Shown here piece by piece: positions 2,456 to 18,584 of a stretch of DNA of 26,420 bases (position 1 is the stretch's first letter; each line of letters starts with the position of its first letter). The position numbers were made by a program, and so were the translations under genes. The DNA is from a virus (Duplodnaviria; Caudoviricetes), in IMG/VR virus record IMGVR_UViG_3300032270_000262, positions 1 to 26,420 of that record; one strand, written 5' to 3'. The notes under the pieces were generated by a model, which ran no database searches, was not told the DNA's origin, and was given only the letters and a program-made list of their open reading frames with translations.

Positions 2456-3296
2456 CAAAGTACTCCTGGTTCGGAACAACTTTTCCTCGGCTTTGAGCAG
2501 TATCAAAAACTTTATTTGGATGTGTTGTAGTGATAGAACCGCCAGATGTTCCACTGATTCCGCTCATGACGCGATCTACACGTACGCCTAGCTCAATAGC
2601 ATCATCTGAAACTACAGGTCTAAATTCTAGGCAGGTTCCTACAGAACGCTGTTGTTTAGTGATTCCATCTTTGTATTTAAAGTATGGTGCTTTGTTTTTT
2701 TTATCTTGAAAGATCTTATTCTTAGACATAAAAAAGATAGTTGTGTTTTCGGCTTTAAGTGCAAAGCCAGTTTGCTTAGCAAGCCTACGAAGAAGCTGCC
2801 AGTCTGTTTGCCCAGCTTGAACTACAGTTTCTCTTAAACGTGGGTGTCTTTGAGTAACAGCTTTTAACCCTTGACGTTTAGCAATCTTTGCTACTACCTG
2901 ATCAGCGGTTACTTTTTTATAGATCTCTTGAGTACTATCTTTTAATACAGAAGACGCAGAAACACACCACACCTGGGTTACATGAGCCATCATTGTTGAG
3001 GCAGGATCGATTTCGTACACGTAGCCTTCAAAGGTAGATTTGTTAGGCCCACTACTATATGTAAATTGAACAGGGTCGCTAGAAACAATTGTTGTCTCAT
3101 CTTTTCTTGGCTTACCTTTAAAAGTTAAGATAAGAACATCATGAGTTTCTATCTCTTGATGTAACTCAGCCCCAATAAGTAACAATTCAAAGTTAGGAGT
3201 TTTAGGAAAGTAAACACTAAAGTCAGAGCTGTATACGGAACCGGTAGATTCCTTAGCGTAGTTTTCAGATATCGTGTATAGATTATCTACTGACAT
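2445..3296 (-). CDS. Baseplate hub (gp27/gpD-like), N-terminal half
   Basis: FEGYV...TADQVVAKIAKRQGL...VQAGQTDWQLLRRLAKQTGF matches the Q-x-x-E/Q-T-D-W-x-L-L-x-R-L-A motif of gpD/VgrG-like hubs. Confidence 0.85.
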   Translation of the reverse strand: MSVDNLYTISENYAKESTGSVYSSDFSVYFPKTPNFELLLIGAELHQEIETHDVLILTFKGKPRKDETTIVSSDPVQFTYSSGPNKSTFEGYVYEIDPASTMMAHVTQVWCVSASSVLKDSTQEIYKKVTADQVVAKIAKRQGLKAVTQRHPRLRETVVQAGQTDWQLLRRLAKQTGFALKAENTTIFFMSKNKIFQDKKNKAPYFKYKDGITKQQRSVGTCLEFRPVVSDDAIELGVRVDRVMSGISGTSGGSITTTHPNKVFDTAQSRGKVVPNQEYFDGI

Positions 3297-3573: not shown

Positions 3574-5450
3574 TGTGCGCTCGCCGCCTTCTTAATTCCC
3601 GCTACATACTTTGTCTGCTTTTCAGAGAACGCCTTCTGTACTTCATCACTAGTTTCACTAATAACTGGGTAACGAATCATAGTAACGTCTACTGTACTGA
3701 ACATAGGAACCATAAGCTCATTAAAGATTACGTGGTTAACTGACACCGAAGCTACAGAACCTTTGTACCTAAGGTTGTTGTGAATCTTAAGCCATACAGG
3801 TGTTCCGGTAATATAACCAAAGTCAGATGTCTCCGCCGGTTTTCCAGAAACTGTGTAAGTCAACAAGGTGTTATTGCTTGGCTTAGGATCGCCATTTAAG
3901 ACTCTGTACAAAAACTCAATGTCATATTCTGTACCTCTATTTAGAATACCTTGGATCTCTTCTTCACGAAGTTCTCTAGGATAGTTTTTACCGTAGACTC
4001 CTGACTTGCCTTTCATACCGGCAAGTTCAGTCATATCAGGCATTCTATTTAAGTAAAGAGTAAAACCTACTGATACGTTTCCACCAATATAGTTAGCTGG
4101 ATCTTTATCGGCTAACATCCAGTCAATAGATGTATCCATAGCTGTGCTATAAGAGATGGTAGTAGGGTTATAATTAAACCTAAATCCCCAAGGCTTGTCG
4201 GCGTTTCCCGGCCCATTCAATGCGGTAGCTGAAGCTTTGTCTTGAAAAATCATTCCAAGTCTTCCAGCTTTTGTTACCTCAGCATTTAAAAGATCGATCT
4301 TGTCATAGGCAATAATGTACCCAGAAGCAGCTCTTGGTTTACCCAAATCTTTCTGTATATTATCTTTTACCTTATTAAAGAAACTTACGTCTCGTGATAC
4401 ATAATGGTTTGGCGGGTTGGTGCGTGTAGTTTGATCTATGTCAATTGGTTTAGATGACGAATATGGAGACGGTTCAGTAGAACCATTATCTACAGCAGCA
4501 CCACAGGTGCTTGTTTTAATAGCTAGCAAAGCATTGATTGCATCTTGCTTACTATCTTTTTTATCTGAACCCTTAAAGTCTTTATTGACGTTAGCCGGAT
4601 TATCTAAGTTAAGGTCAAAGCCAATAAACTGATCAGGACCCAAAGCTCCCAAACCAGCAGCTAATTTTTCTGCGGTATTAGCTCCAGTAAAGGTAGACTG
4701 GATACCATCTAAAGACCATCGTCGTAAGTAGTAGTTGGTAAGCAAGGGATTAATGTCCCCAGATCTAACGACAGCAACCCATTGGTTTGGGGTGCTGCAT
4801 TTATCTAAAGTAATATAGCTTTTATTCCAGGCAGCCTCTAAAACTTGATTAGGGATTGTAGGATCCATACGAGCCCCTGTCCACTTTACGACAGGTATAT
4901 TCTCTGCTGGCAATACTTCAAGATCTACTGCTCCTGGGTTCTCATCTGAGTACGGTTTAAGTCTTACATAGATTCTAGGAGTTACGGTTACGTTTGCCTT
5001 TTTGGCAAGCAAATTAAAGTAAAAAATTTCTTTAGAGTCTTGAGTAGAATTGTCAACGTAGTACGGAAACTTAGAAGCAGTGTTTTTAACAAACACTCTT
5101 TGACTTCCAGAGCTAGTTTGTACTATATCTCCAATACTTACTTGGTCTGCAACTTCGGTTCTCCAAGACTGTAGCAATAGAACTTGAACCCCATCACCGT
5201 CATACAGTGGCTCGGCAGGGTTAGCAACACTAGGTTCTACATAACTGTTTCCTACCCTTTTCTTTTTCCATACACGAATTGCATAGCGAACTTCGTAGTC
5301 TTTGTAAACAGCTTTAGAGTCTGAATTGATTAAGACATAGTCTTTTGTATCAGAACCTTTTTGAGTCTTAACCTGTTCGTAAGCATCAATAGTCCAAAAG
5401 TATTGAGACCCCGCATCTTGAGTACCAGATATGTTCTTATAGTTTGTCAT
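3570..5450 (-). CDS. Probable tail tube initiator (tube-like C-terminal domain) with a large unknown N-terminal region
   Basis: C-terminal WGFRFNYNPTTISYS...YKGSVASVSVNHVIFNELMVPMFSTVDVTM resembles tube-initiator proteins; lies between tape measure and LysM genes. Confidence 0.6.
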   Translation of the reverse strand: MTNYKNISGTQDAGSQYFWTIDAYEQVKTQKGSDTKDYVLINSDSKAVYKDYEVRYAIRVWKKKRVGNSYVEPSVANPAEPLYDGDGVQVLLLQSWRTEVADQVSIGDIVQTSSGSQRVFVKNTASKFPYYVDNSTQDSKEIFYFNLLAKKANVTVTPRIYVRLKPYSDENPGAVDLEVLPAENIPVVKWTGARMDPTIPNQVLEAAWNKSYITLDKCSTPNQWVAVVRSGDINPLLTNYYLRRWSLDGIQSTFTGANTAEKLAAGLGALGPDQFIGFDLNLDNPANVNKDFKGSDKKDSKQDAINALLAIKTSTCGAAVDNGSTEPSPYSSSKPIDIDQTTRTNPPNHYVSRDVSFFNKVKDNIQKDLGKPRAASGYIIAYDKIDLLNAEVTKAGRLGMIFQDKASATALNGPGNADKPWGFRFNYNPTTISYSTAMDTSIDWMLADKDPANYIGGNVSVGFTLYLNRMPDMTELAGMKGKSGVYGKNYPRELREEEIQGILNRGTEYDIEFLYRVLNGDPKPSNNTLLTYTVSGKPAETSDFGYITGTPVWLKIHNNLRYKGSVASVSVNHVIFNELMVPMFSTVDVTMIRYPVISETSDEVQKAFSEKQTKYVAGIKKAASAQ

Positions 5451-8449
5451 TAGTTACCTCCAATACCCTTGATCTTAAGTTCGTTATTGATAGCACTTCG
5501 TAGCTCACTTGCTACACGTTGTACTTCAAAGGTGCCCAGCTTAGCAACAGATACCTGCATGTCTACCTTTACATTAATGTTAGATGTTGCGTGTACAGAT
5601 CCTCCGCCTGCTCTTCCCATAGCTTGAGACATGTTGTTTACAGTTTCCATAGCCATACCTGGATTGTCTCCACCAACACCTGCAGCTCTAGCAGCTGTGT
5701 TTGCGTCATCTAAGTACTTAGTAAAGGAACCGTTAGTAAACGTAGCCCATTGTTTCCACCAGCTACCCTTATTAGAAACTTCAAATGCTGCAGCAATATT
5801 CTTTTTAGCGTTAAATAACTCTTTGTTATTTGAGATACCAAACTGCTTACGACGATTTCTACCCATGTTTGGAGAAGCAGGGTCGTCATCCTTCATGTTA
5901 ATCTGGAACAATCCGTAAGATAGATCTCTGTTCTTTCCATTAAACGCATTGGCTCTACCACCGGACTCAGCAAGCGCTACAGCAAAAGCTGTCTCAAGTC
6001 CTTTGCCTCTAAAGCCTGCACTGTGAAGCATACGAATCAAACCTTCGCGGTTACCTCCAGCCATACCTACGCTGTCACCGGATACTTTGTCCATCTTGTT
6101 ATTGATATATACAGAGCCGTTGCTGCCTTTAATACCTTTGCCAATTGCGCTTTGTGGAAACTCATTTTTAAATGATGCAAAGTCAATAGGGCCACCAGAC
6201 ATTAACGCATTACTTAAAGATTCACTTAGAGGAATGCTGCTAAGTACTGATGCGCTTGAACCTCTAAAGTTTAGGCCTGCACCAGGGGTTACACGTGCAC
6301 CCTTACTAGGGGCATCGTCACCAATACCTAGTGCCTTACCAACAGACTTAAATAGGTTAGATACAGTGCTGATAAGTCGACCAAACCAACCTCTAGGGTT
6401 TTCACGTCCTCTAGCACCAACGCCACCGTTATCACGTACTTCAAAGTGAAGGTGAGGACCAGTAGAAGTTCCTGCTCCAGGAGCACCCTTCTTACCACCG
6501 GACTTACCAATCATTTCTCCAGCGCTAACACGTTGTCCTACCTTAACTAAGATCTTAGATAGATGGCCGTACAGCGTAGATTTCTTTCCGTGTTTAATAA
6601 TTACATAGTTTCCGTATTGACGATGTAGACCGGCGTGAGTAACAATACCGTTAGCCGCAGCAACAATCTTTGTTCCAACTGCTACGCCGTAGTCAATACC
6701 GCTGTGATTGCTAGAGATCTGTGGATTCTTTGAGTTGTCACGTGGACCAAAGTTTGATGTAACCGGTGTACCAGCAGGTACAGGCATCTGAAGAGTCATA
6801 CCCTTTGTGTCTTGATTGCCGCCTGCAAACCCTTGCTGTGGGCTTACAGCATTAGACATTCCTGGGTTATCTCCACCCTGTCCACATGCGTGGCTTCCAA
6901 TATTGCCGTGGCTACAACCATCTCCGCCTCGTCCATAAGGGTTTGTTGCAGCACCGATTGTTCCAGCAACACCACCGGCAATTGCTCCGTAACCACCGCC
7001 AGCAATAGCGCCTGTTGCAATGCCTTGTCCCATATCAAACATAAAGTTTCCACCGGTACGTAACCACGATGGAACGTTTGCTTTATTTAAAAATCCTTGT
7101 AACTTCTCCATGCCAAAATAGGCACCTGCCGCTAGTGCCCCTTTACCAAGAAGTTTTCCAGCTCCCTTTAATCCGCCGCCCTTACTCATAAGTCCACCTA
7201 AGAAGCCAGGACCTTTTAAACCGCCACCTGCGCCACGAGTAAGAACGCTGTGCATCATTTTAAGTTGAAGCAAGTCCATACCAAGTCCGGCAGCACCACC
7301 TCCAATACCAGCGATTGTTGCACCAGTATTGCCTGCACCAGGTAACGTTTGCATAACGCCACGTAGTCCAGCAAAAGCTTGAGTTAATAAATCTGCTTGT
7401 TCTGCAAGAGAACTAAAACCATTGTTTACTGCAGCTGTAGTATTAAGCGCAGTGTTGTAACCACCTACTAATCCTTTTTCAGTGGCTTGAAGCTTACGAG
7501 CCTCACTAGTGTTGTAATTAAAGTTAGCACGAAGAGGGCTTTCTTTACCAACACCTAGAAGGTCTAAAGACTTTTGTGCGTTTCCTAAGTCACCCTTCTT
7601 AAGGGGGCTTCCACTTCTAGCTCTAGCAATAACACCCATTTGGATGATATTCATAAGATTTGGATCGCCACCAGCAATAGCGGAGATGGTTGCGTAACCC
7701 TTTGATCCAGGGTTTAATACCATTGCAGCTTGCTCTGGAGTTACCTTACGACCACCGTATAAGAAACGATAGGTGTCATTGATAATCTGGTTAGGTGGCT
7801 TTAGGTTTCCTTGAGCGTCACGAGCCTGCACACCTATTCGCAAGAAACGCATAGCGTTAACGCCAGCAAGTCCTGCAGCAACTTGTTCGTTACTAGACCC
7901 AGTGATTGCGCTTAGGCCACCAACCTGGGGCATAACGTTTTTAAATGTCTGACTTGTAGCTGTGTATCCGCCACCGTACATAAGTGACATAGTTGCCATG
8001 GTTGGGCCCATAGCACTTGTGGCTCCATTACCTACAGCTTTGTTAGACCGTAGGATAGCTTGGCGGGCATTTATTCCGCTGATGCCAGCTACAGCATCAG
8101 CAGCAAGACGTTGAGTCACGGCGGCGCCAGTATTTGGCATCATTCCCATGCCAATACCGGCAGCTACCACTCCACCCATTGCTACCTTTTGACCAGTACT
8201 AAATCCTCCGAACTGATCACGGAATCTAGGCATTTCGCCCATACCGATTTTAGAGTCACCCTTGCCGGTAGCAGAAAGCATGTTCTTTCTGATTTGATCA
8301 GTGAGCTCTGCAATTTCTTTCATTAACTTTGCAGTCATACCAAGACCTGCATTACCGTTAATTATTTTAAACATCTTTTCGGTATCAGAAGTAGCCCCTG
8401 CTAGGATATTGTCATCCTGTGAGGGGAATAGGCTTTCGTATCCTGCCAC
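5450..8449 (-). CDS. Tape measure protein with M23 peptidase and SLT-like lytic transglycosylase domains
   Basis: Ala/Gly-rich N-terminal half directly after the chaperone. M23 motifs HSGIDYG, YGHLS, STGPHLHFEVR. Transglycosylase motifs AVALAESGG and SYGLFQIN. GTG start. Confidence 0.9.
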   Translation of the reverse strand: MAGYESLFPSQDDNILAGATSDTEKMFKIINGNAGLGMTAKLMKEIAELTDQIRKNMLSATGKGDSKIGMGEMPRFRDQFGGFSTGQKVAMGGVVAAGIGMGMMPNTGAAVTQRLAADAVAGISGINARQAILRSNKAVGNGATSAMGPTMATMSLMYGGGYTATSQTFKNVMPQVGGLSAITGSSNEQVAAGLAGVNAMRFLRIGVQARDAQGNLKPPNQIINDTYRFLYGGRKVTPEQAAMVLNPGSKGYATISAIAGGDPNLMNIIQMGVIARARSGSPLKKGDLGNAQKSLDLLGVGKESPLRANFNYNTSEARKLQATEKGLVGGYNTALNTTAAVNNGFSSLAEQADLLTQAFAGLRGVMQTLPGAGNTGATIAGIGGGAAGLGMDLLQLKMMHSVLTRGAGGGLKGPGFLGGLMSKGGGLKGAGKLLGKGALAAGAYFGMEKLQGFLNKANVPSWLRTGGNFMFDMGQGIATGAIAGGGYGAIAGGVAGTIGAATNPYGRGGDGCSHGNIGSHACGQGGDNPGMSNAVSPQQGFAGGNQDTKGMTLQMPVPAGTPVTSNFGPRDNSKNPQISSNHSGIDYGVAVGTKIVAAANGIVTHAGLHRQYGNYVIIKHGKKSTLYGHLSKILVKVGQRVSAGEMIGKSGGKKGAPGAGTSTGPHLHFEVRDNGGVGARGRENPRGWFGRLISTVSNLFKSVGKALGIGDDAPSKGARVTPGAGLNFRGSSASVLSSIPLSESLSNALMSGGPIDFASFKNEFPQSAIGKGIKGSNGSVYINNKMDKVSGDSVGMAGGNREGLIRMLHSAGFRGKGLETAFAVALAESGGRANAFNGKNRDLSYGLFQINMKDDDPASPNMGRNRRKQFGISNNKELFNAKKNIAAAFEVSNKGSWWKQWATFTNGSFTKYLDDANTAARAAGVGGDNPGMAMETVNNMSQAMGRAGGGSVHATSNINVKVDMQVSVAKLGTFEVQRVASELRSAINNELKIKGIGGN

Positions 8450-14151: not shown

Positions 14152-14376
14152 CTACTCCTTTTCAGGCTTTGTAAAAGTAGATGTTTCTGGGTCGTAAGTA
14201 GCGTTAGGGACAAGGTTTGACAGATCTTCGTTTGAAGTACGGTCGGTTACGTCAAGGATTAACGGTTCGCTTAAAAAAATAGCAGCAAGACGTTCGTCTG
14301 TATGTAGGATATCTGTTACTACATTATCAATAATAAATGCCAACTTAATAGGTGGCAAAGGTTTTTCTTCGGCCAT
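14152..14376 (-). CDS. Hypothetical protein (74 aa), possibly fibre-associated
   Basis: ORF track; ends ATYDPETSTFTKP, reminiscent of small tail-fibre assembly proteins; TAATG-coupled. Confidence 0.65.
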   Translation of the reverse strand: MAEEKPLPPIKLAFIIDNVVTDILHTDERLAAIFLSEPLILDVTDRTSNEDLSNLVPNATYDPETSTFTKPEKE

Positions 14377-14612
14377 TACATTTCCTCCTTATAGGATACT
14401 TGTACTGCTTCCCACTTGTGTAAAGGACAGGACGCATTTGGAAGCTTTGTCTTAAGCTTCATAATGCAACCACACTCTTTGCATTGAGAGGTTGCTTTAA
14501 TAAATTTGTCGCACCCACGGCAGATGTCAAGCCGTTGTGAAGCAATGTCTGTTTCTACTCGTCCAATATTTTTATTGAACAAATCCCATGGTCTAGCCGG
14601 TCTGTCGCTCAT
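14376..14612 (-). CDS. Small six-Cys putative metal-binding protein (78 aa)
   Basis: CRGC-x9-CKECGC-x12-CPLHKW. Confidence 0.75.
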   Translation of the reverse strand: MSDRPARPWDLFNKNIGRVETDIASQRLDICRGCDKFIKATSQCKECGCIMKLKTKLPNASCPLHKWEAVQVSYKEEM

Positions 14613-14620
14613 ATGCTCTC

Positions 14621-16390
14621 CTAAATAGTAGCCAAGAAGTTATCGGTTGTAGAGCCCTGACTTCCTGTGGAAGGGCCCTTAATTATACCCACAGATGTTC
14701 CCCTGGTTGGGTTGGATGCTGTAAAGCTTAGAGTAGATCCTACCTGGGATCCGGTCAAGTTAGACCCTGAGTAGGCAGAAGAAGTTATTACGCTGCCTAC
14801 GGTGGTTACGTATACAGACCCTACGGTAGAGAATCCAGAGGTGTTAGTAGCCAAGTTTAAAGTAGAAGCTACAGCAACAGTTCCAGACACAGAGCTAACC
14901 AATACAAGGTCGCTAGTATAGGTAGTTACGCTTCTAGTAGATGTAAAGCAAGAGTATGTAGGGACATTCCTAGTTGCTGTAAAACAAGAGTAGAAGGTAG
15001 GTTGTACTACTTGAGAAGTAAAGCAGCTGTAGGTAATCGGGTTGTTAACTGAGCGTGTTGAGGTATAGCAGCTGTAGGTAATTGGATTATTAACTAAACG
15101 AGTAGAGGTGTAGCAGCTATAAGTAATTGGATTAGCCACGTTGCGAGTAGAGGTGTAGCAATAATATGAAGTGTAGGTAAACGGTACTGTCGTAGTGTTA
15201 CAAGACCAAGATCCCGCTGTAGTAGTTGTTGTTGCACAGTAGCTATAGTTAGCTCCAGCGGTGGTTCCGTTACAGGTTTTTTGTTGAACTTCACTACCAG
15301 TACAATAACCACTAAATAAGTTAATAAGTCTACAACTTGTACTTGTAGATCCTGCACTTTGAACAGGAATATCACAGCACCCTGAAAGGTCAAAAATATT
15401 AGCTGCGGTTCTTACACCTCCGGAACAATAGCTAGAGTTTACAGTCTGGGAGAACTCTCCAGAACAAGCGTCTAATGGGCAACCAAAACCATAGGTCTCT
15501 ACACGACCTTGGTCGCAAACAGGAGTTGTACCACCTCCGCCTTGGCTAACTCCAGAACAACATTGATTTGATGGGGGGTTGCTAGAGCTAGTTACCTGAC
15601 TCTGGTCGCAAACATTGCTTTGACCACCTCCGCCTTGGCTAACTCCAGAACAACATTGATTTGATGGGGGGTTACTAGTACTTGTTACTTGGCTTTGGTC
15701 GCAAACAGTGCTGGTACCGCCACCGCCTTGGCTAACTCCAGAACAACATTGATTTGATGGAGGGTTGCTAGTACTTGTTACTTGGTTTCCTGTACAGGTT
15801 GATCCGCCTCCGCTCGTAGTTACTCCAGAGCAACAGTTAGGTGAAGGAGGGTTGTATTGAGTTGTTACCTGAGTTTGATCACAAACAGCCTGCGAACCAG
15901 TAGTTACTCCAGAGCAACAGCTAGCAGAGGGTGGGTTATTAAAGTTAGTTACTAAACCTTGATCGCAAAATGTATTTGTAACAGATGTATATCGTGGGTA
16001 GCTTGCCCACCAAGATCCTGAATCTGTAACCCAAAACGCTGGACCTACACCGCCAGTAGTATCAGTCTGAATCTTTACATCAGTATTACCTAAGTTAATA
16101 GAAGCTAAGGGATAACTAGATTCAGCATCGTCTGAGATAGCGCTGTTAGATCCACTAATACGCCAGTTGCCACGAGTAGCATTCCATGCTTGACCTGAAT
16201 CAGCTGTTCCTAGCCCTGTTGCTGTAGAGGCTCTATTAAAAGCATCTTGTATTTTAGATGCAAACCATTGTTTCCAAGCGCCACCAACTTTAATGTAGCC
16301 AGAAGTAGCGGTCTTCCATTGACCGCCAACTTTTACAGAAAGACTAGTAATAGTCTTCCAGGCACCATTAACTTTGGATTGACCAGGCAT
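14621..16390 (-). CDS. Cys-rich putative adhesin / receptor-binding protein
   Basis: N-terminal KVxGxWK x3; beta-rich N- and C-terminal segments (possibly one lectin-like sandwich) interrupted by a ~340-aa insertion containing 32 Cys. Confidence 0.7.
   Translation of the reverse strand: MPGQSKVNGAWKTITSLSVKVGGQWKTATSGYIKVGGAWKQWFASKIQDAFNRASTATGLGTADSGQAWNATRGNWRISGSNSAISDDAESSYPLASINLGNTDVKIQTDTTGGVGPAFWVTDSGSWWASYPRYTSVTNTFCDQGLVTNFNNPPSASCCSGVTTGSQAVCDQTQVTTQYNPPSPNCCSGVTTSGGGSTCTGNQVTSTSNPPSNQCCSGVSQGGGGTSTVCDQSQVTSTSNPPSNQCCSGVSQGGGGQSNVCDQSQVTSSSNPPSNQCCSGVSQGGGGTTPVCDQGRVETYGFGCPLDACSGEFSQTVNSSYCSGGVRTAANIFDLSGCCDIPVQSAGSTSTSCRLINLFSGYCTGSEVQQKTCNGTTAGANYSYCATTTTTAGSWSCNTTTVPFTYTSYYCYTSTRNVANPITYSCYTSTRLVNNPITYSCYTSTRSVNNPITYSCFTSQVVQPTFYSCFTATRNVPTYSCFTSTRSVTTYTSDLVLVSSVSGTVAVASTLNLATNTSGFSTVGSVYVTTVGSVITSSAYSGSNLTGSQVGSTLSFTASNPTRGTSVGIIKGPSTGSQGSTTDNFLATI
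15010..15160. repeat. Tandem 45-bp coding repeat, about 3 copies (YSCYTSTRxVNNPIT)
   Basis: gcagct(g/a)ta(g/a)gtaat recurs at 15023, 15068 and 15113. Confidence 0.9.
15510..15790. repeat. Tandem 93-bp coding repeat, about 3 copies (CDQSQVTSxSNPPSNQCCSGVSQGGGGxxxV)
   Basis: cttggctaactccagaacaacattgatttgatgg recurs at 15541, 15634 and 15727. Confidence 0.93.
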
Positions 16391-16626
16391 TATACGTATT
16401 GCACCCAGATATCTCCATCAGAGCCCTGACCTGAGGTAGGGGCGCTAGTGGATACGGTGATGTTACGCACTACAGTTTGTGAAGTACTTGCAGTAGTTAC
16501 TGCACCATTTACTACGTTTACCGCACCAATAGCTGTTGGGTTAATACCTAAGCTAGCTGGATTTAGCTGTGGGCTACCAAATGATTCCCATTGAGCGGTA
16601 CCAGAGTTCCATCGTTTTACTGCCAT
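16390..16626 (-). CDS. Short fibre adapter protein (78 aa)
   Basis: N-terminal KRWNSGTAQW and C-terminal STSAPTSGQGSDGDIWVQYV, both motifs typical of phage fibres. Confidence 0.7.
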   Translation of the reverse strand: MAVKRWNSGTAQWESFGSPQLNPASLGINPTAIGAVNVVNGAVTTASTSQTVVRNITVSTSAPTSGQGSDGDIWVQYV

Positions 16627-17200: not shown

Positions 17201-17536
17201 TTACGCTACCTCAGAACCAAAAGCCTGGAATGTTAGGTTAGCTGTTGATGCCACCACAGTAACGCTGTCAGTAGCTGACAAAGTAATACCTAATGTAAAG
17301 GTAGTGGTGGTATTAGCTGGGACAGTTGTGTCATAGGCTAGGTATTGCTTGTTGTCTAGAGCTGCGTTATCTTCACGAAGCGCAATACGGTAGGTTGCTG
17401 CGGTAGTTCCGCGGTTGCAGATCACGATTGTAGACACAACGGCTGAGGTGTTGGATGGCACTGCGTATAGCTGGCTGCCTCCCACTACGTTAGCTGCTGG
17501 CGCAACCTGACCTAGAATCTTATATGTCGTTGCCAA
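17201..17536 (-). CDS. Putative virion structural protein (111 aa)
   Basis: MATTYKILGQ...LYAVP...VVSTIVICN...FQAFGSE; small beta-rich protein within the fibre cluster. Confidence 0.65.
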   Translation of the reverse strand: MATTYKILGQVAPAANVVGGSQLYAVPSNTSAVVSTIVICNRGTTAATYRIALREDNAALDNKQYLAYDTTVPANTTTTFTLGITLSATDSVTVVASTANLTFQAFGSEVA

Positions 17537-18584
17537 GAGATTGCTCCTTCAAATAGAAAGCTAGATTAGCTGTAAGGCGAGGATCCTGTGGGCTTAATTC
17601 TACAGCTTTGCGCCCGTATTGTAGGGCTTTGTCAAACTTTCCTAGGCGGTAATAAGAGATAGCTGCAAAGTCCCAGGGTGCTGCTCCCCAGGCAAATTCT
17701 TCACATAGATACTCCAGAGGCTTTTCTTTTATAGCTAACGCCTTTTCTGCAGCCTGATAGCAGGCAGTCCAACGTTTGTTTTGATAGTAATAGTCCGCTA
17801 GGTCTACTAAAGCTTCTCGTCTATCAGGACATTCATCATGTGCCTTTAGTAACCAATCTTCTTTTTCTGAAACCATCTTAGCGATATAACGCATGGAAGC
17901 TGCCCGCTCCGGCTTCCAGGTGGCTTTTGGCAATGAAAGATGGCGCATAAACTCTTGTGTGGCTTCTTCAAAACGACCGTGAAAGAACAACTCGCGGGCG
18001 TAGTAAAAAGTGTTTCTATCATCATATGGGTCTTCTTGAACAGCCTGAGCTAGCAAAGGCATGTACTGACTACGAGACTTAGAGTGGTCTGGATAGTGAT
18101 GGATTTCTAGAGGGATCCAATCCTGAACCTCAATAGATTGATTGGTAACTATAACTTCGTGTACGGGGTGCTTCCAACGATAGCCCTTACGAGCATGGAT
18201 CTTATCCCCGCCATACTCAAGTCCGGGTGTCCCATCCTCTTTCCAACTCCACGTGTATTTATATCGTGGTCTGGTTACGGCTGGGTTTATATTGTCAAAG
18301 CCTGAACGCCAACCCTCAACCAGTACTTCATCCATATCAAGGGCGATGCAGTAGTCAATGTCAGCTGGAATTGCAGCTAGGGAAGCGTTGCGGGCATCAT
18401 CAAAGCGCCAAGGTTTAATACTAATATCTATGACGTTAATTCCAAGGGATTTAGCTAGCTCTATGGTTCCATCAGTGGATCCAGTATCAGCTATGAGGAT
18501 ATAGTCCGCTTCTTTGGCAGACTGATACCAGCGCTCAACAAAATGCTTTTCGTTTAACGCGATTGTGTAAACCGCTATCTTCAT
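17520..18584 (-). CDS. GT2 (GT-A fold) glycosyltransferase with C-terminal TPR repeats
   Basis: IAVYTIALNE, IADTGSTDGT, FDDARNASL, DxD-type LDMDE, WKHPVHE, then TPR-like helices (FYYAREL..., YYRLGKFDKALQYGRKAVELSP); SD GGAGG. Confidence 0.9.
   Translation of the reverse strand: MKIAVYTIALNEKHFVERWYQSAKEADYILIADTGSTDGTIELAKSLGINVIDISIKPWRFDDARNASLAAIPADIDYCIALDMDEVLVEGWRSGFDNINPAVTRPRYKYTWSWKEDGTPGLEYGGDKIHARKGYRWKHPVHEVIVTNQSIEVQDWIPLEIHHYPDHSKSRSQYMPLLAQAVQEDPYDDRNTFYYARELFFHGRFEEATQEFMRHLSLPKATWKPERAASMRYIAKMVSEKEDWLLKAHDECPDRREALVDLADYYYQNKRWTACYQAAEKALAIKEKPLEYLCEEFAWGAAPWDFAAISYYRLGKFDKALQYGRKAVELSPQDPRLTANLAFYLKEQSLGNDI

Follow-up and report, generated by a model that had tools for sequence, protein, structure and literature searches.

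The window, meaning the whole stretch of 26,420 nucleotides of viral DNA analysed here, is a fragment of a contractile-tailed phage, with baseplate, tube and sheath genes at its left and collagen-like fibre genes at its right. On the minus strand, an open reading frame at 14621-16390 encodes a 589-aa protein, P0001, which carries a 355-residue insert with 32 Cys within a predicted lectin-fold base. The gene, its parts and its neighbours are as follows.

14621-16390, minus strand: P0001 gene (open reading frame), with a Trp cap, a split lectin-fold base and a nested Cys-rich insert
16259-16390, minus strand: residues 1-44, a beta-hairpin repeated three times with Trp at each tip (W11, W25, W39), a likely docking cap (sequence; strands in both models)
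15986-16258, minus strand: residues 45-135, N-terminal half of the predicted ConA-like lectin/CBM beta-sandwich (P0050 model and fold search)
15374-15967, minus strand: residues 142-339, outgoing arm of seven three-Cys loop modules, six C-x15-CC and one C-x11-C-x4-C (sequence)
15509-15785, no strand: DNA tandem repeat of 93 bp x 3.0, 88% matches, coding for modules 3-5 (repeat detection)
15215-15355, minus strand: residues 346-392, tip with four Cys (sequence)
15014-15134, no strand: DNA tandem repeat of 45 bp x 2.7, 82% matches, coding for the mirror partners of modules 3-5 (repeat detection)
14948-15202, minus strand: residues 397-481, returning arm of seven single-Cys units, mostly Y-x-C-Y/F-T (sequence)
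14621-14920, minus strand: residues 491-589, C-terminal half of the predicted lectin-fold base (P0050 model and fold search)
16390-16626, minus strand: 78-aa gene whose product ends in GDIWVQYV, a motif of tail-fibre C-termini, and is the likely docking partner (residues 54-78 match phrog_14064 tail fiber protein at E 6e-6)
14376-14612, minus strand: 78-aa six-Cys DUF6171 gene directly downstream (PF19668, E 8.8e-7); candidate folding or redox helper
14152-14376, minus strand: 74-aa acidic gene, third of the conserved cassette, no match in family searches

The insert consists of 32% Ser+Thr, 9% Cys, 5.6% Pro and 3.4% Ala, and has no His. Neither a signal peptide nor an LPXTG-type anchor was seen in the P0001 sequence. 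P0001 matched no Pfam or NCBIfam family, and its PHROG matches were confined to residues 4-66. The search of 50,697 GenBank phage records gave zero matches, cultured phages included. PDB sequences gave no match to P0001 or its cap, returning rows only at E ≥ 0.05 for the 78-aa upstream protein and alignment A3; the ESM Atlas held no usable match to P0001, and no RNA holder was listed at a useful share. WhiB genes were found in all five related genomes (88-102 kb each), which points to actinobacteria as the likely hosts.

Elsewhere in the window, a tape-measure-like protein (5450-8449, minus strand) has M23 peptidase and SLT lysozyme domains. Amid the fibre genes, the segment 21145-26309 (minus strand) encodes phrog_7084, a DUF401-like membrane protein, phrog_1458 (with a methyltransferase domain), phrog_1409 and phrog_1417; phrog_7084-like genes also adjoin DUF6171 in two other loci (L063 and L076). 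Within the structural module, 17520-18584 (minus strand) encodes a glycosyltransferase with TPR repeats. Given also the Ser/Thr-rich insert, glycosylation of the virion is possible.

Cysteine pattern of P0001

All 32 Cys of P0001 fall at residues 142-481 (14948-15967). Those of the outgoing modules are 142/158/159, 170/186/187, 199/215/216, 230/246/247, 261/277/278, 292/304/309 and 322/338/339, those of the tip are 353, 363, 373 and 385, and the single Cys of the returning arm are 397, 411, 426, 441, 456, 469 and 481. A residue count bore out every number that the preliminary description had given for this layout, namely seven three-Cys modules, a four-Cys tip, seven single-Cys units and 32 Cys. 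The outgoing first-Cys spacings are 28, 29, 31, 31, 31, 30 and (31), with linkers of 11, 12, 14, 14, 14 and 13 between modules, and the returning spacings, counted inward from the C-terminus, are 12, 13, 15, 15, 15, 14 and (12). Our recount also confirmed that the outgoing spacing exceeds the returning one by 16 in six intervals and deviates only beside the tip, where 31 faces 12 and the difference is 19. The six return spacings can be put in 120 distinct orders, only one of which yields a constant difference, and reading the spacings in parallel order gives differences of 14-18. As a general rule the value of 16 was rejected, since it becomes 17-20 in relatives with an extra Cys pair per module.

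Three relatives that are 87-90% identical to P0001 (P0002-P0004) have the same gap pattern, and contigs from run X1, which may be the source sample, match 14400-15559 and 15731-16600 with zero differences, no listed piece covering the whole gene. An assembly artefact is thus unlikely to be the origin of the Cys pattern. The depth of run X1 was 32 over the repeat core compared with about 10 alongside.

Base fold and structure models

The base was examined in a model of P0050, a 340-aa homologue (pTM 0.73), in which cap and base are confident (base pLDDT 96-98), the insert has pLDDT <50, and strands exit and re-enter the base at the insert. A fold search with the base gave 127 chains at Z ≥ 8, with CBM66 in the top row and ConA-like domains in most top rows. 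The matches included CBM66 (4b1m; Z 17.4, rmsd 2.4, 148 aligned residues), the receptor-binding domain of TM4 gp23 (9n6a, Z 15.9) and a Douge baseplate chain (8zdo_a, Z 15.2). Across these ConA-like domains the shared fold (Z 15-17, rmsd 2.4-3.0 over 148-169 residues) comes with 5-11% identity, and the alignments cover the base alone. The base is therefore predicted to be a two-sheet ConA-like lectin/CBM beta-sandwich. The earlier proposal that the insert projects from a loop of a beta-sandwich agrees with this model and fold match, which place it in one loop of the predicted sandwich.

The AlphaFold2 model of P0001 itself was weak (mean pLDDT 57.6, pTM 0.30, 20 sequences), with long strands at residues 127-150 and 473-501. 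In BFVD the full-length model retrieved three uncharacterised phage proteins at E ≤ 0.001. Against the PDB it retrieved none at E ≤ 0.001, only weak long-hairpin rows. The best Z in a fold search was 6.5, and the model is too poor to show a new fold.

Mirror register among relatives

We collected 68 homologues of similar length. At 50% identity, 475 clusters share the N-terminal base half. Unrelated multi-domain proteins are among them, and the best 150 clusters were examined. In 113 of these best 150 (both base halves, ≤700 aa), Cys made up 11.1% of the insert compared with 0.41% elsewhere; the Cys count was even in 105 of the 109 inserts that contain Cys.

For a register test, 38 of 79 proteins could be parsed as N-arm modules, giving 15 distinct patterns and 71 intervals. 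The return spacing equalled the inter-module linker (from the last Cys to the next first Cys) plus one in 50 of the 71 intervals, and was within one residue of it in 63. Shuffles within proteins gave a mean of 20.8 and a maximum of 34 in 20,000, and the parallel order satisfied the relation in 16 intervals. It was missed in 21 intervals, and cross-protein pairing alone reaches 40% because the relatives share ancestry. The relation holds despite extra Cys pairs within modules, which break the value of 16; this indicates that the stalk is measured by the linker and not by the module, which is likely a side loop. In addition, the length between base and first Cys goes along with the length between last Cys and base (Spearman 0.62 over 124 representatives, which fall into discrete classes).

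The preliminary description had asked for repeat numbers in homologues, uncorrelated numbers being what would speak against it; we found covariation in mirror order for the unit counts, for the spacings and for the presence of Cys. Matched arm counts span 1+1 to 8+8 for the module type of P0001. In L089, 11 four-Cys modules accompany 11 Y-x-R returns, with nine of ten irregular gaps mirrored, and other unit types are matched as 6+6 in L006, 2+2 in ten proteins, 3+3 in P0041 and 4+4 in four proteins with CPxGGxLSG returns. By strict motif, which misses variant modules, the counts were equal in 23 of 50 proteins and within one in 37 (Spearman 0.92); motif counts were 8 versus 7 in P0069 and unequal in 6 of 13 further four-Cys-module proteins. 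P0020 has five modules and seven returns. It is known from a single contig, whereas its sibling P0070, from an eight-contig cluster, and L015 are 7+7, so the mismatch is likely a repeat collapse. Plain mirror equality of Cys gaps was weak across the family, most stalks being asymmetric; it held in 145 of 932 cases, compared with a shuffle mean of 113. Taken together, the covariation among homologues supports the earlier claim that the chain runs out and folds back antiparallel, and it makes a nested hairpin pairing of the two arms in three dimensions very likely.

Several relatives depart from this layout. P0113 and P0157 carry Cys-free inserts rich in Tyr, Pro and Ala on the same base, with a mirror-like look, as a stalk without disulfides. 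Symmetric inserts with palindromic Cys spacing in P0103, P0158, P0138 and P0169 are likely plain two-stranded ladders; in P0103, twelve gaps of 12 flank one gap of 18. In P0053 and P0109 the Cys/Pro-rich part is not nested between the base halves, and in P0109 it comes after a complete base.

Covariation of cysteines

Cys covariation was followed in 101 of 250 anchored proteins, walked inward by the register rule, which gave 328 units. Below, C1, Ca and Cb are the Cys of an outgoing module in order, and Cr is the returning single Cys. The presence of a spare Cys in the module was consistent with that of a facing return Cys in 300 of the 328 units: modules with an odd number of Cys faced a Cys at the mirror site in 243 of 257 units, and those with an even number in 14 of 71. 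Among 50%-identity representatives the figures were 45 of 50 and 2 of 24 (Fisher p 5e-12). The exceptions were mostly arm-swapped proteins and P0020. Ca and Cr are both missing in three sequence classes, namely the four-Cys modules, P0024/28/31, and P0155 with, by eye, P0126; C1 and Cb are both missing in P0067/P0077. These joint absences suggest the bonds Ca-Cr and C1-Cb, the assignment of C1-Cb resting on one event.

Arm swap and tip exchange

At least 14 relatives are arm-swapped (P0030, P0033-P0045 less P0031/32, and L006 with near-copies), having loop modules on the returning arm and single Cys on the outgoing arm. In all ten proteins tested, the outermost pair resembles module 2 and return 2 of unswapped relatives; this test used eight reference proteins, for one of which, P0032, the search pattern took a later module as 'module 2'. 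A linker of 13 faces a gap of 14 in all four swapped proteins with two flipped rungs, and the mirror partner of the swapped single Cys is Ca, the first Cys of the CC pair. The swapped outer units fit the prediction for an end-over-end flip of an antiparallel segment. Trees of the two base halves (52 rows; 90 and 99 columns) had too little resolution to show how often the arm swap or the changes in unit number arose. They placed P0013/16/17 differently, which hints at recombination within the gene.

Among 15 relatives, conservation is lowest in the tip and module 7, with a mean identity of 54% compared with 88-91% for the base. In five of these 15 close relatives (P0008, P0011, P0013, P0016 and P0017) the tip is wholly replaced, with 9-21% identity. 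One knob motif stands on differing stalks, in P0016, P0024/28/31 and the arm-swapped P0035. Exchange of a contiguous inner cassette through crossovers at mirror positions would alter both tip and length while the counts stay matched.

Cap, fibre end and downstream cassette

Co-occurrence of the cap with the fibre end encoded upstream was scored in 52 distinct pairs, two loci without an upstream open reading frame being dropped. Cap and GD[IV]W end occurred together in 19 pairs, the cap without the end in 0, the end without the regex cap in 7 and neither in 26; by eye, those seven ends precede a divergent three-Trp cap. This association suggests that P0001 is an adhesin of the gp38-like kind in an actinophage of ~100 kb, and we regard a position at the fibre tip as fairly likely for it. 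Adhesins without the Trp cap (L024-L030, L065-L110) begin with different N-terminal peptides and are preceded by fibres with different C-terminal motifs, which suggests that several matched docking pairs exist among adhesins and fibre ends.

In 26 of 27 loci the DUF6171 gene comes next after the base gene, a contig end accounting for the one miss, and 67 of 80 DUF6171 loci, which overlap and are related, have a base gene ≤350 nt upstream. It also follows base genes with merely 6-8 Cys. In the ESM Atlas the six-Cys protein matched DUF6171 clusters only. Two divergent DUF6171 copies can occur in one locus (L083:2986-3681; L105:720-947 and 2983-3234), and L100 and L105 each have a copy that stands behind glycosyltransferase/epimerase genes instead of the adhesin. 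P0022 is recorded as a single 668-aa chain in which the adhesin runs on into the DUF6171 protein, and P0007, P0047 and P0070 extend a few residues beyond the usual stop, with Q at that site. Records of the P0022 type could be read-through of the stop by the gene caller (TAG as Gln) or a real fusion.

A proposed model of the stalk

We propose, with a probability of roughly 0.6 for the reading as a whole, that P0001 is a monomeric fibre-tip adhesin of an actinobacterial myovirus with a disulfide-stapled out-and-back stalk and an exchangeable tip. One loop of the predicted lectin-fold base would run out and back as an antiparallel stalk, each rung being made of two sequence-distant halves, an outgoing module (C1...Ca-Cb) and the one Cys of a return unit (Cr). 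Beyond Cb, the linker would likely pair in register with the returning strand, and the segment from C1 to Ca would bulge sideways as a loop that is shut by C1-Cb, while Ca-Cr would staple the arms. The predicted bonds are 142-159/158-481, 170-187/186-469, 199-216/215-456, 230-247/246-441, 261-278/277-426 and 322-339/338-397, with 292-309/304-411 less sure. If fully extended, the returning strand would span 28-32 nm and hold the tip up to about 30 nm off. The three-Trp cap may dock the monomer onto the trimeric end encoded upstream. Whole rungs or the inner cassette would be gained, lost or exchanged, changing length and tip, and only matched arms would persist.

Alternative explanations

The preliminary description had allowed either two disulfides or one metal site for the four Cys of each unit. 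The same nested hairpin could have Cys4 Zn/Fe nodes as rungs, or could bind metal in the cytoplasm and be oxidised only after lysis, and there are indeed four Cys per rung in P0001. With no signal peptide, P0001 is made in the reducing cytoplasm, the five related genomes yielded no Erv1-type oxidase (the control was blank too), and the neighbouring gene encodes a six-Cys CxxC protein. Cys change by twos, however, as in the five-Cys modules, the loss of Ca with Cr and the one loss of C1 with Cb; insert Cys counts modulo 4 (36 zero, 34 two, 11 odd) are not enriched in multiples of four; and His makes up 0.3% of insert residues across the family, indicating that lost Cys are not substituted by His. 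The pairwise change, the counts and the scarcity of His favour two disulfides per unit over a metal site, and we consider disulfide rungs probable and metal rungs unlikely. Thioredoxin, present in all five related genomes, was set aside as evidence for disulfide formation; ribonucleotide-reductase-like genes in related loci could explain it. Disulfides in phage virions are documented for Pam3 (PMC9942802) and for a siphovirus tail tube (PMC13576161).

A different question is which part touches the host. With the stalk real, the lectin base may be the receptor binder, and the Ser/Thr-rich stalk and tip a spacer, shield or secondary adhesin, possibly glycosylated, that does not determine host range. 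The base resembles actinophage receptor-binding domains and is far better conserved than the tip, the glycosyltransferase gene lies four genes upstream of a gene whose insert is 32% Ser+Thr, and two representatives have Cys-free inserts. Against this, tips are swapped as cassettes among differing stalks, as with the shared knob motif, and mosaic variation at the distal end is typical of host-contact parts. We hold this alternative to be possible, if on the unlikely side, and give host contact by the tip about an even chance. Pairing of the arms between chains of a domain-swapped, interwoven oligomer is improbable. Covariation cannot separate pairing within a chain from pairing between chains, and passages of PMC9603124 describe the T4 needle as an interwoven out-and-back trimer; yet a chain with three tandem Trp hairpins fits a monomer seated on a trimer, which is how parts of PMC6851490 describe S16 gp38, and bulky side loops would pack poorly on a threefold axis. 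That the outgoing modules are independent beads, with numbers matched by shared ancestry or chance, is hardly credible. The homologues are related, P0020 is unmatched and the full-length model has low confidence, but matching recurs in at least four unit chemistries, in irregular gap series and after arm swap, and a three-Cys module has one Cys left without a partner at just those places where there is a mirror Cys.

Comparison with known systems

The T4 gp37 needle has a His-iron core. In the account given in parts of PMC9603124, its chain leaves a globular domain, reaches the tip and turns back over about 20 nm, forming a phage receptor-binding out-and-back insertion as proposed for P0001; the same parts present an interwoven homotrimer and mention neither Cys repeat rungs nor repeat-wise length change. 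Another comparison is with streptococcal antigen I/II proteins (SpaP, Bsp), in which, as passages of PMC7732690 describe, unlike outgoing and returning repeats intertwine to form a stalk that raises a variable domain, by over 50 nm in SpaP, and that varies in size among homologues. P0001 would share with them an out-and-back stalk of paired unlike repeats and a variable apex, as judged by covariation only. According to those passages, antigen I/II proteins have Ala-rich and Pro-rich repeats with Tyr/PxxP interlocks and are secreted and LPXTG-anchored, whereas P0001 would have beta strands, Cys rungs and side loops in a lectin-loop insertion and is phage-encoded, with no signal peptide and no sequence match. 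Membership in antigen I/II was rejected, as neither the Ala/Pro repeats, the signal peptide, the LPXTG anchor nor a Pfam match was found.

In bovine ultralong CDR-H3, a disulfide-rich variable knob sits on two beta strands, one rising from a loop of a beta-sandwich and one descending to it (parts of PMC5994613 and PMC8602281). There the insertion is described as at most about 70 residues on an Ig domain, with knob disulfides and no repeated rungs, whereas the insert of P0001 has 355 residues with Cys mostly in the stalk. An Ig V scaffold was rejected for P0001, its base matching ConA-like domains. Adhesin gp38 of the S16/T2 type, in the parts of PMC6851490 that deal with it, docks singly on the trimeric fibre through three Trp and has a modular host-contact end; P0001 has the W11/W25/W39 repeats and the co-occurring upstream GD[IV]W end, and may dock in a similar way. 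The same source gives gp38 three helices, a beta-helix and a polyglycine sandwich, where the predictions for P0001 are hairpins, a base of lectin fold and a stalk with Cys; neither the helical attachment domain, the polyglycine sandwich nor a gp38 family match was found in P0001. F-type TraN is portrayed in passages of PMC9246713 as a Cys-rich extended adhesin with a C-terminal part that folds back, a variable tip that sets receptor choice and all Cys predicted in disulfides; unlike P0001, it is an outer-membrane conjugation protein with a beta-sandwich tip. TraN membership was rejected, with no Pfam TraN match in P0001 or 30 relatives, including P0068, which a source had named TraN, and no NCBIfam TraN match for P0001, P0068 or P0069.

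The statement that the design resembles no described phage family stood in part. Full-text literature, mostly open-access main texts, held no description of the P0001 family or of DUF6171, and none of a beta/disulfide stalk with split, extendable, flippable rungs in phage; the out-and-back principle itself has conceptual precedents in the T4 gp37 needle, antigen I/II and the stalk and knob of bovine CDR-H3, and TraN too folds back beneath its variable tip. Thus the principle is known, and the beta/disulfide version with such rungs in phage was not found described.

Implications

These results raise the questions of how two distant half-repeats are gained jointly and how many disulfides are made on a cytoplasm-made phage protein, for which DUF6171 is a candidate. 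A bolder reading, which we consider speculative and rather doubtful, is that the stalks form a new nested-repeat class with split, flippable rungs of multiple chemistries, in which the apex knob would set host range and DUF6171 would be a dedicated factor for at least 16 disulfides (32 in L006). The 475 clusters that share the N-terminal base half point to a large undescribed family of putative phage host-recognition proteins, found here in phages whose hosts are likely actinobacteria. For this family, the proposed stalk would amount to natural design rules for a rod that is monomeric, tunable in length and stapled by disulfides and whose tip can be exchanged, together with bond predictions at the level of single residues.
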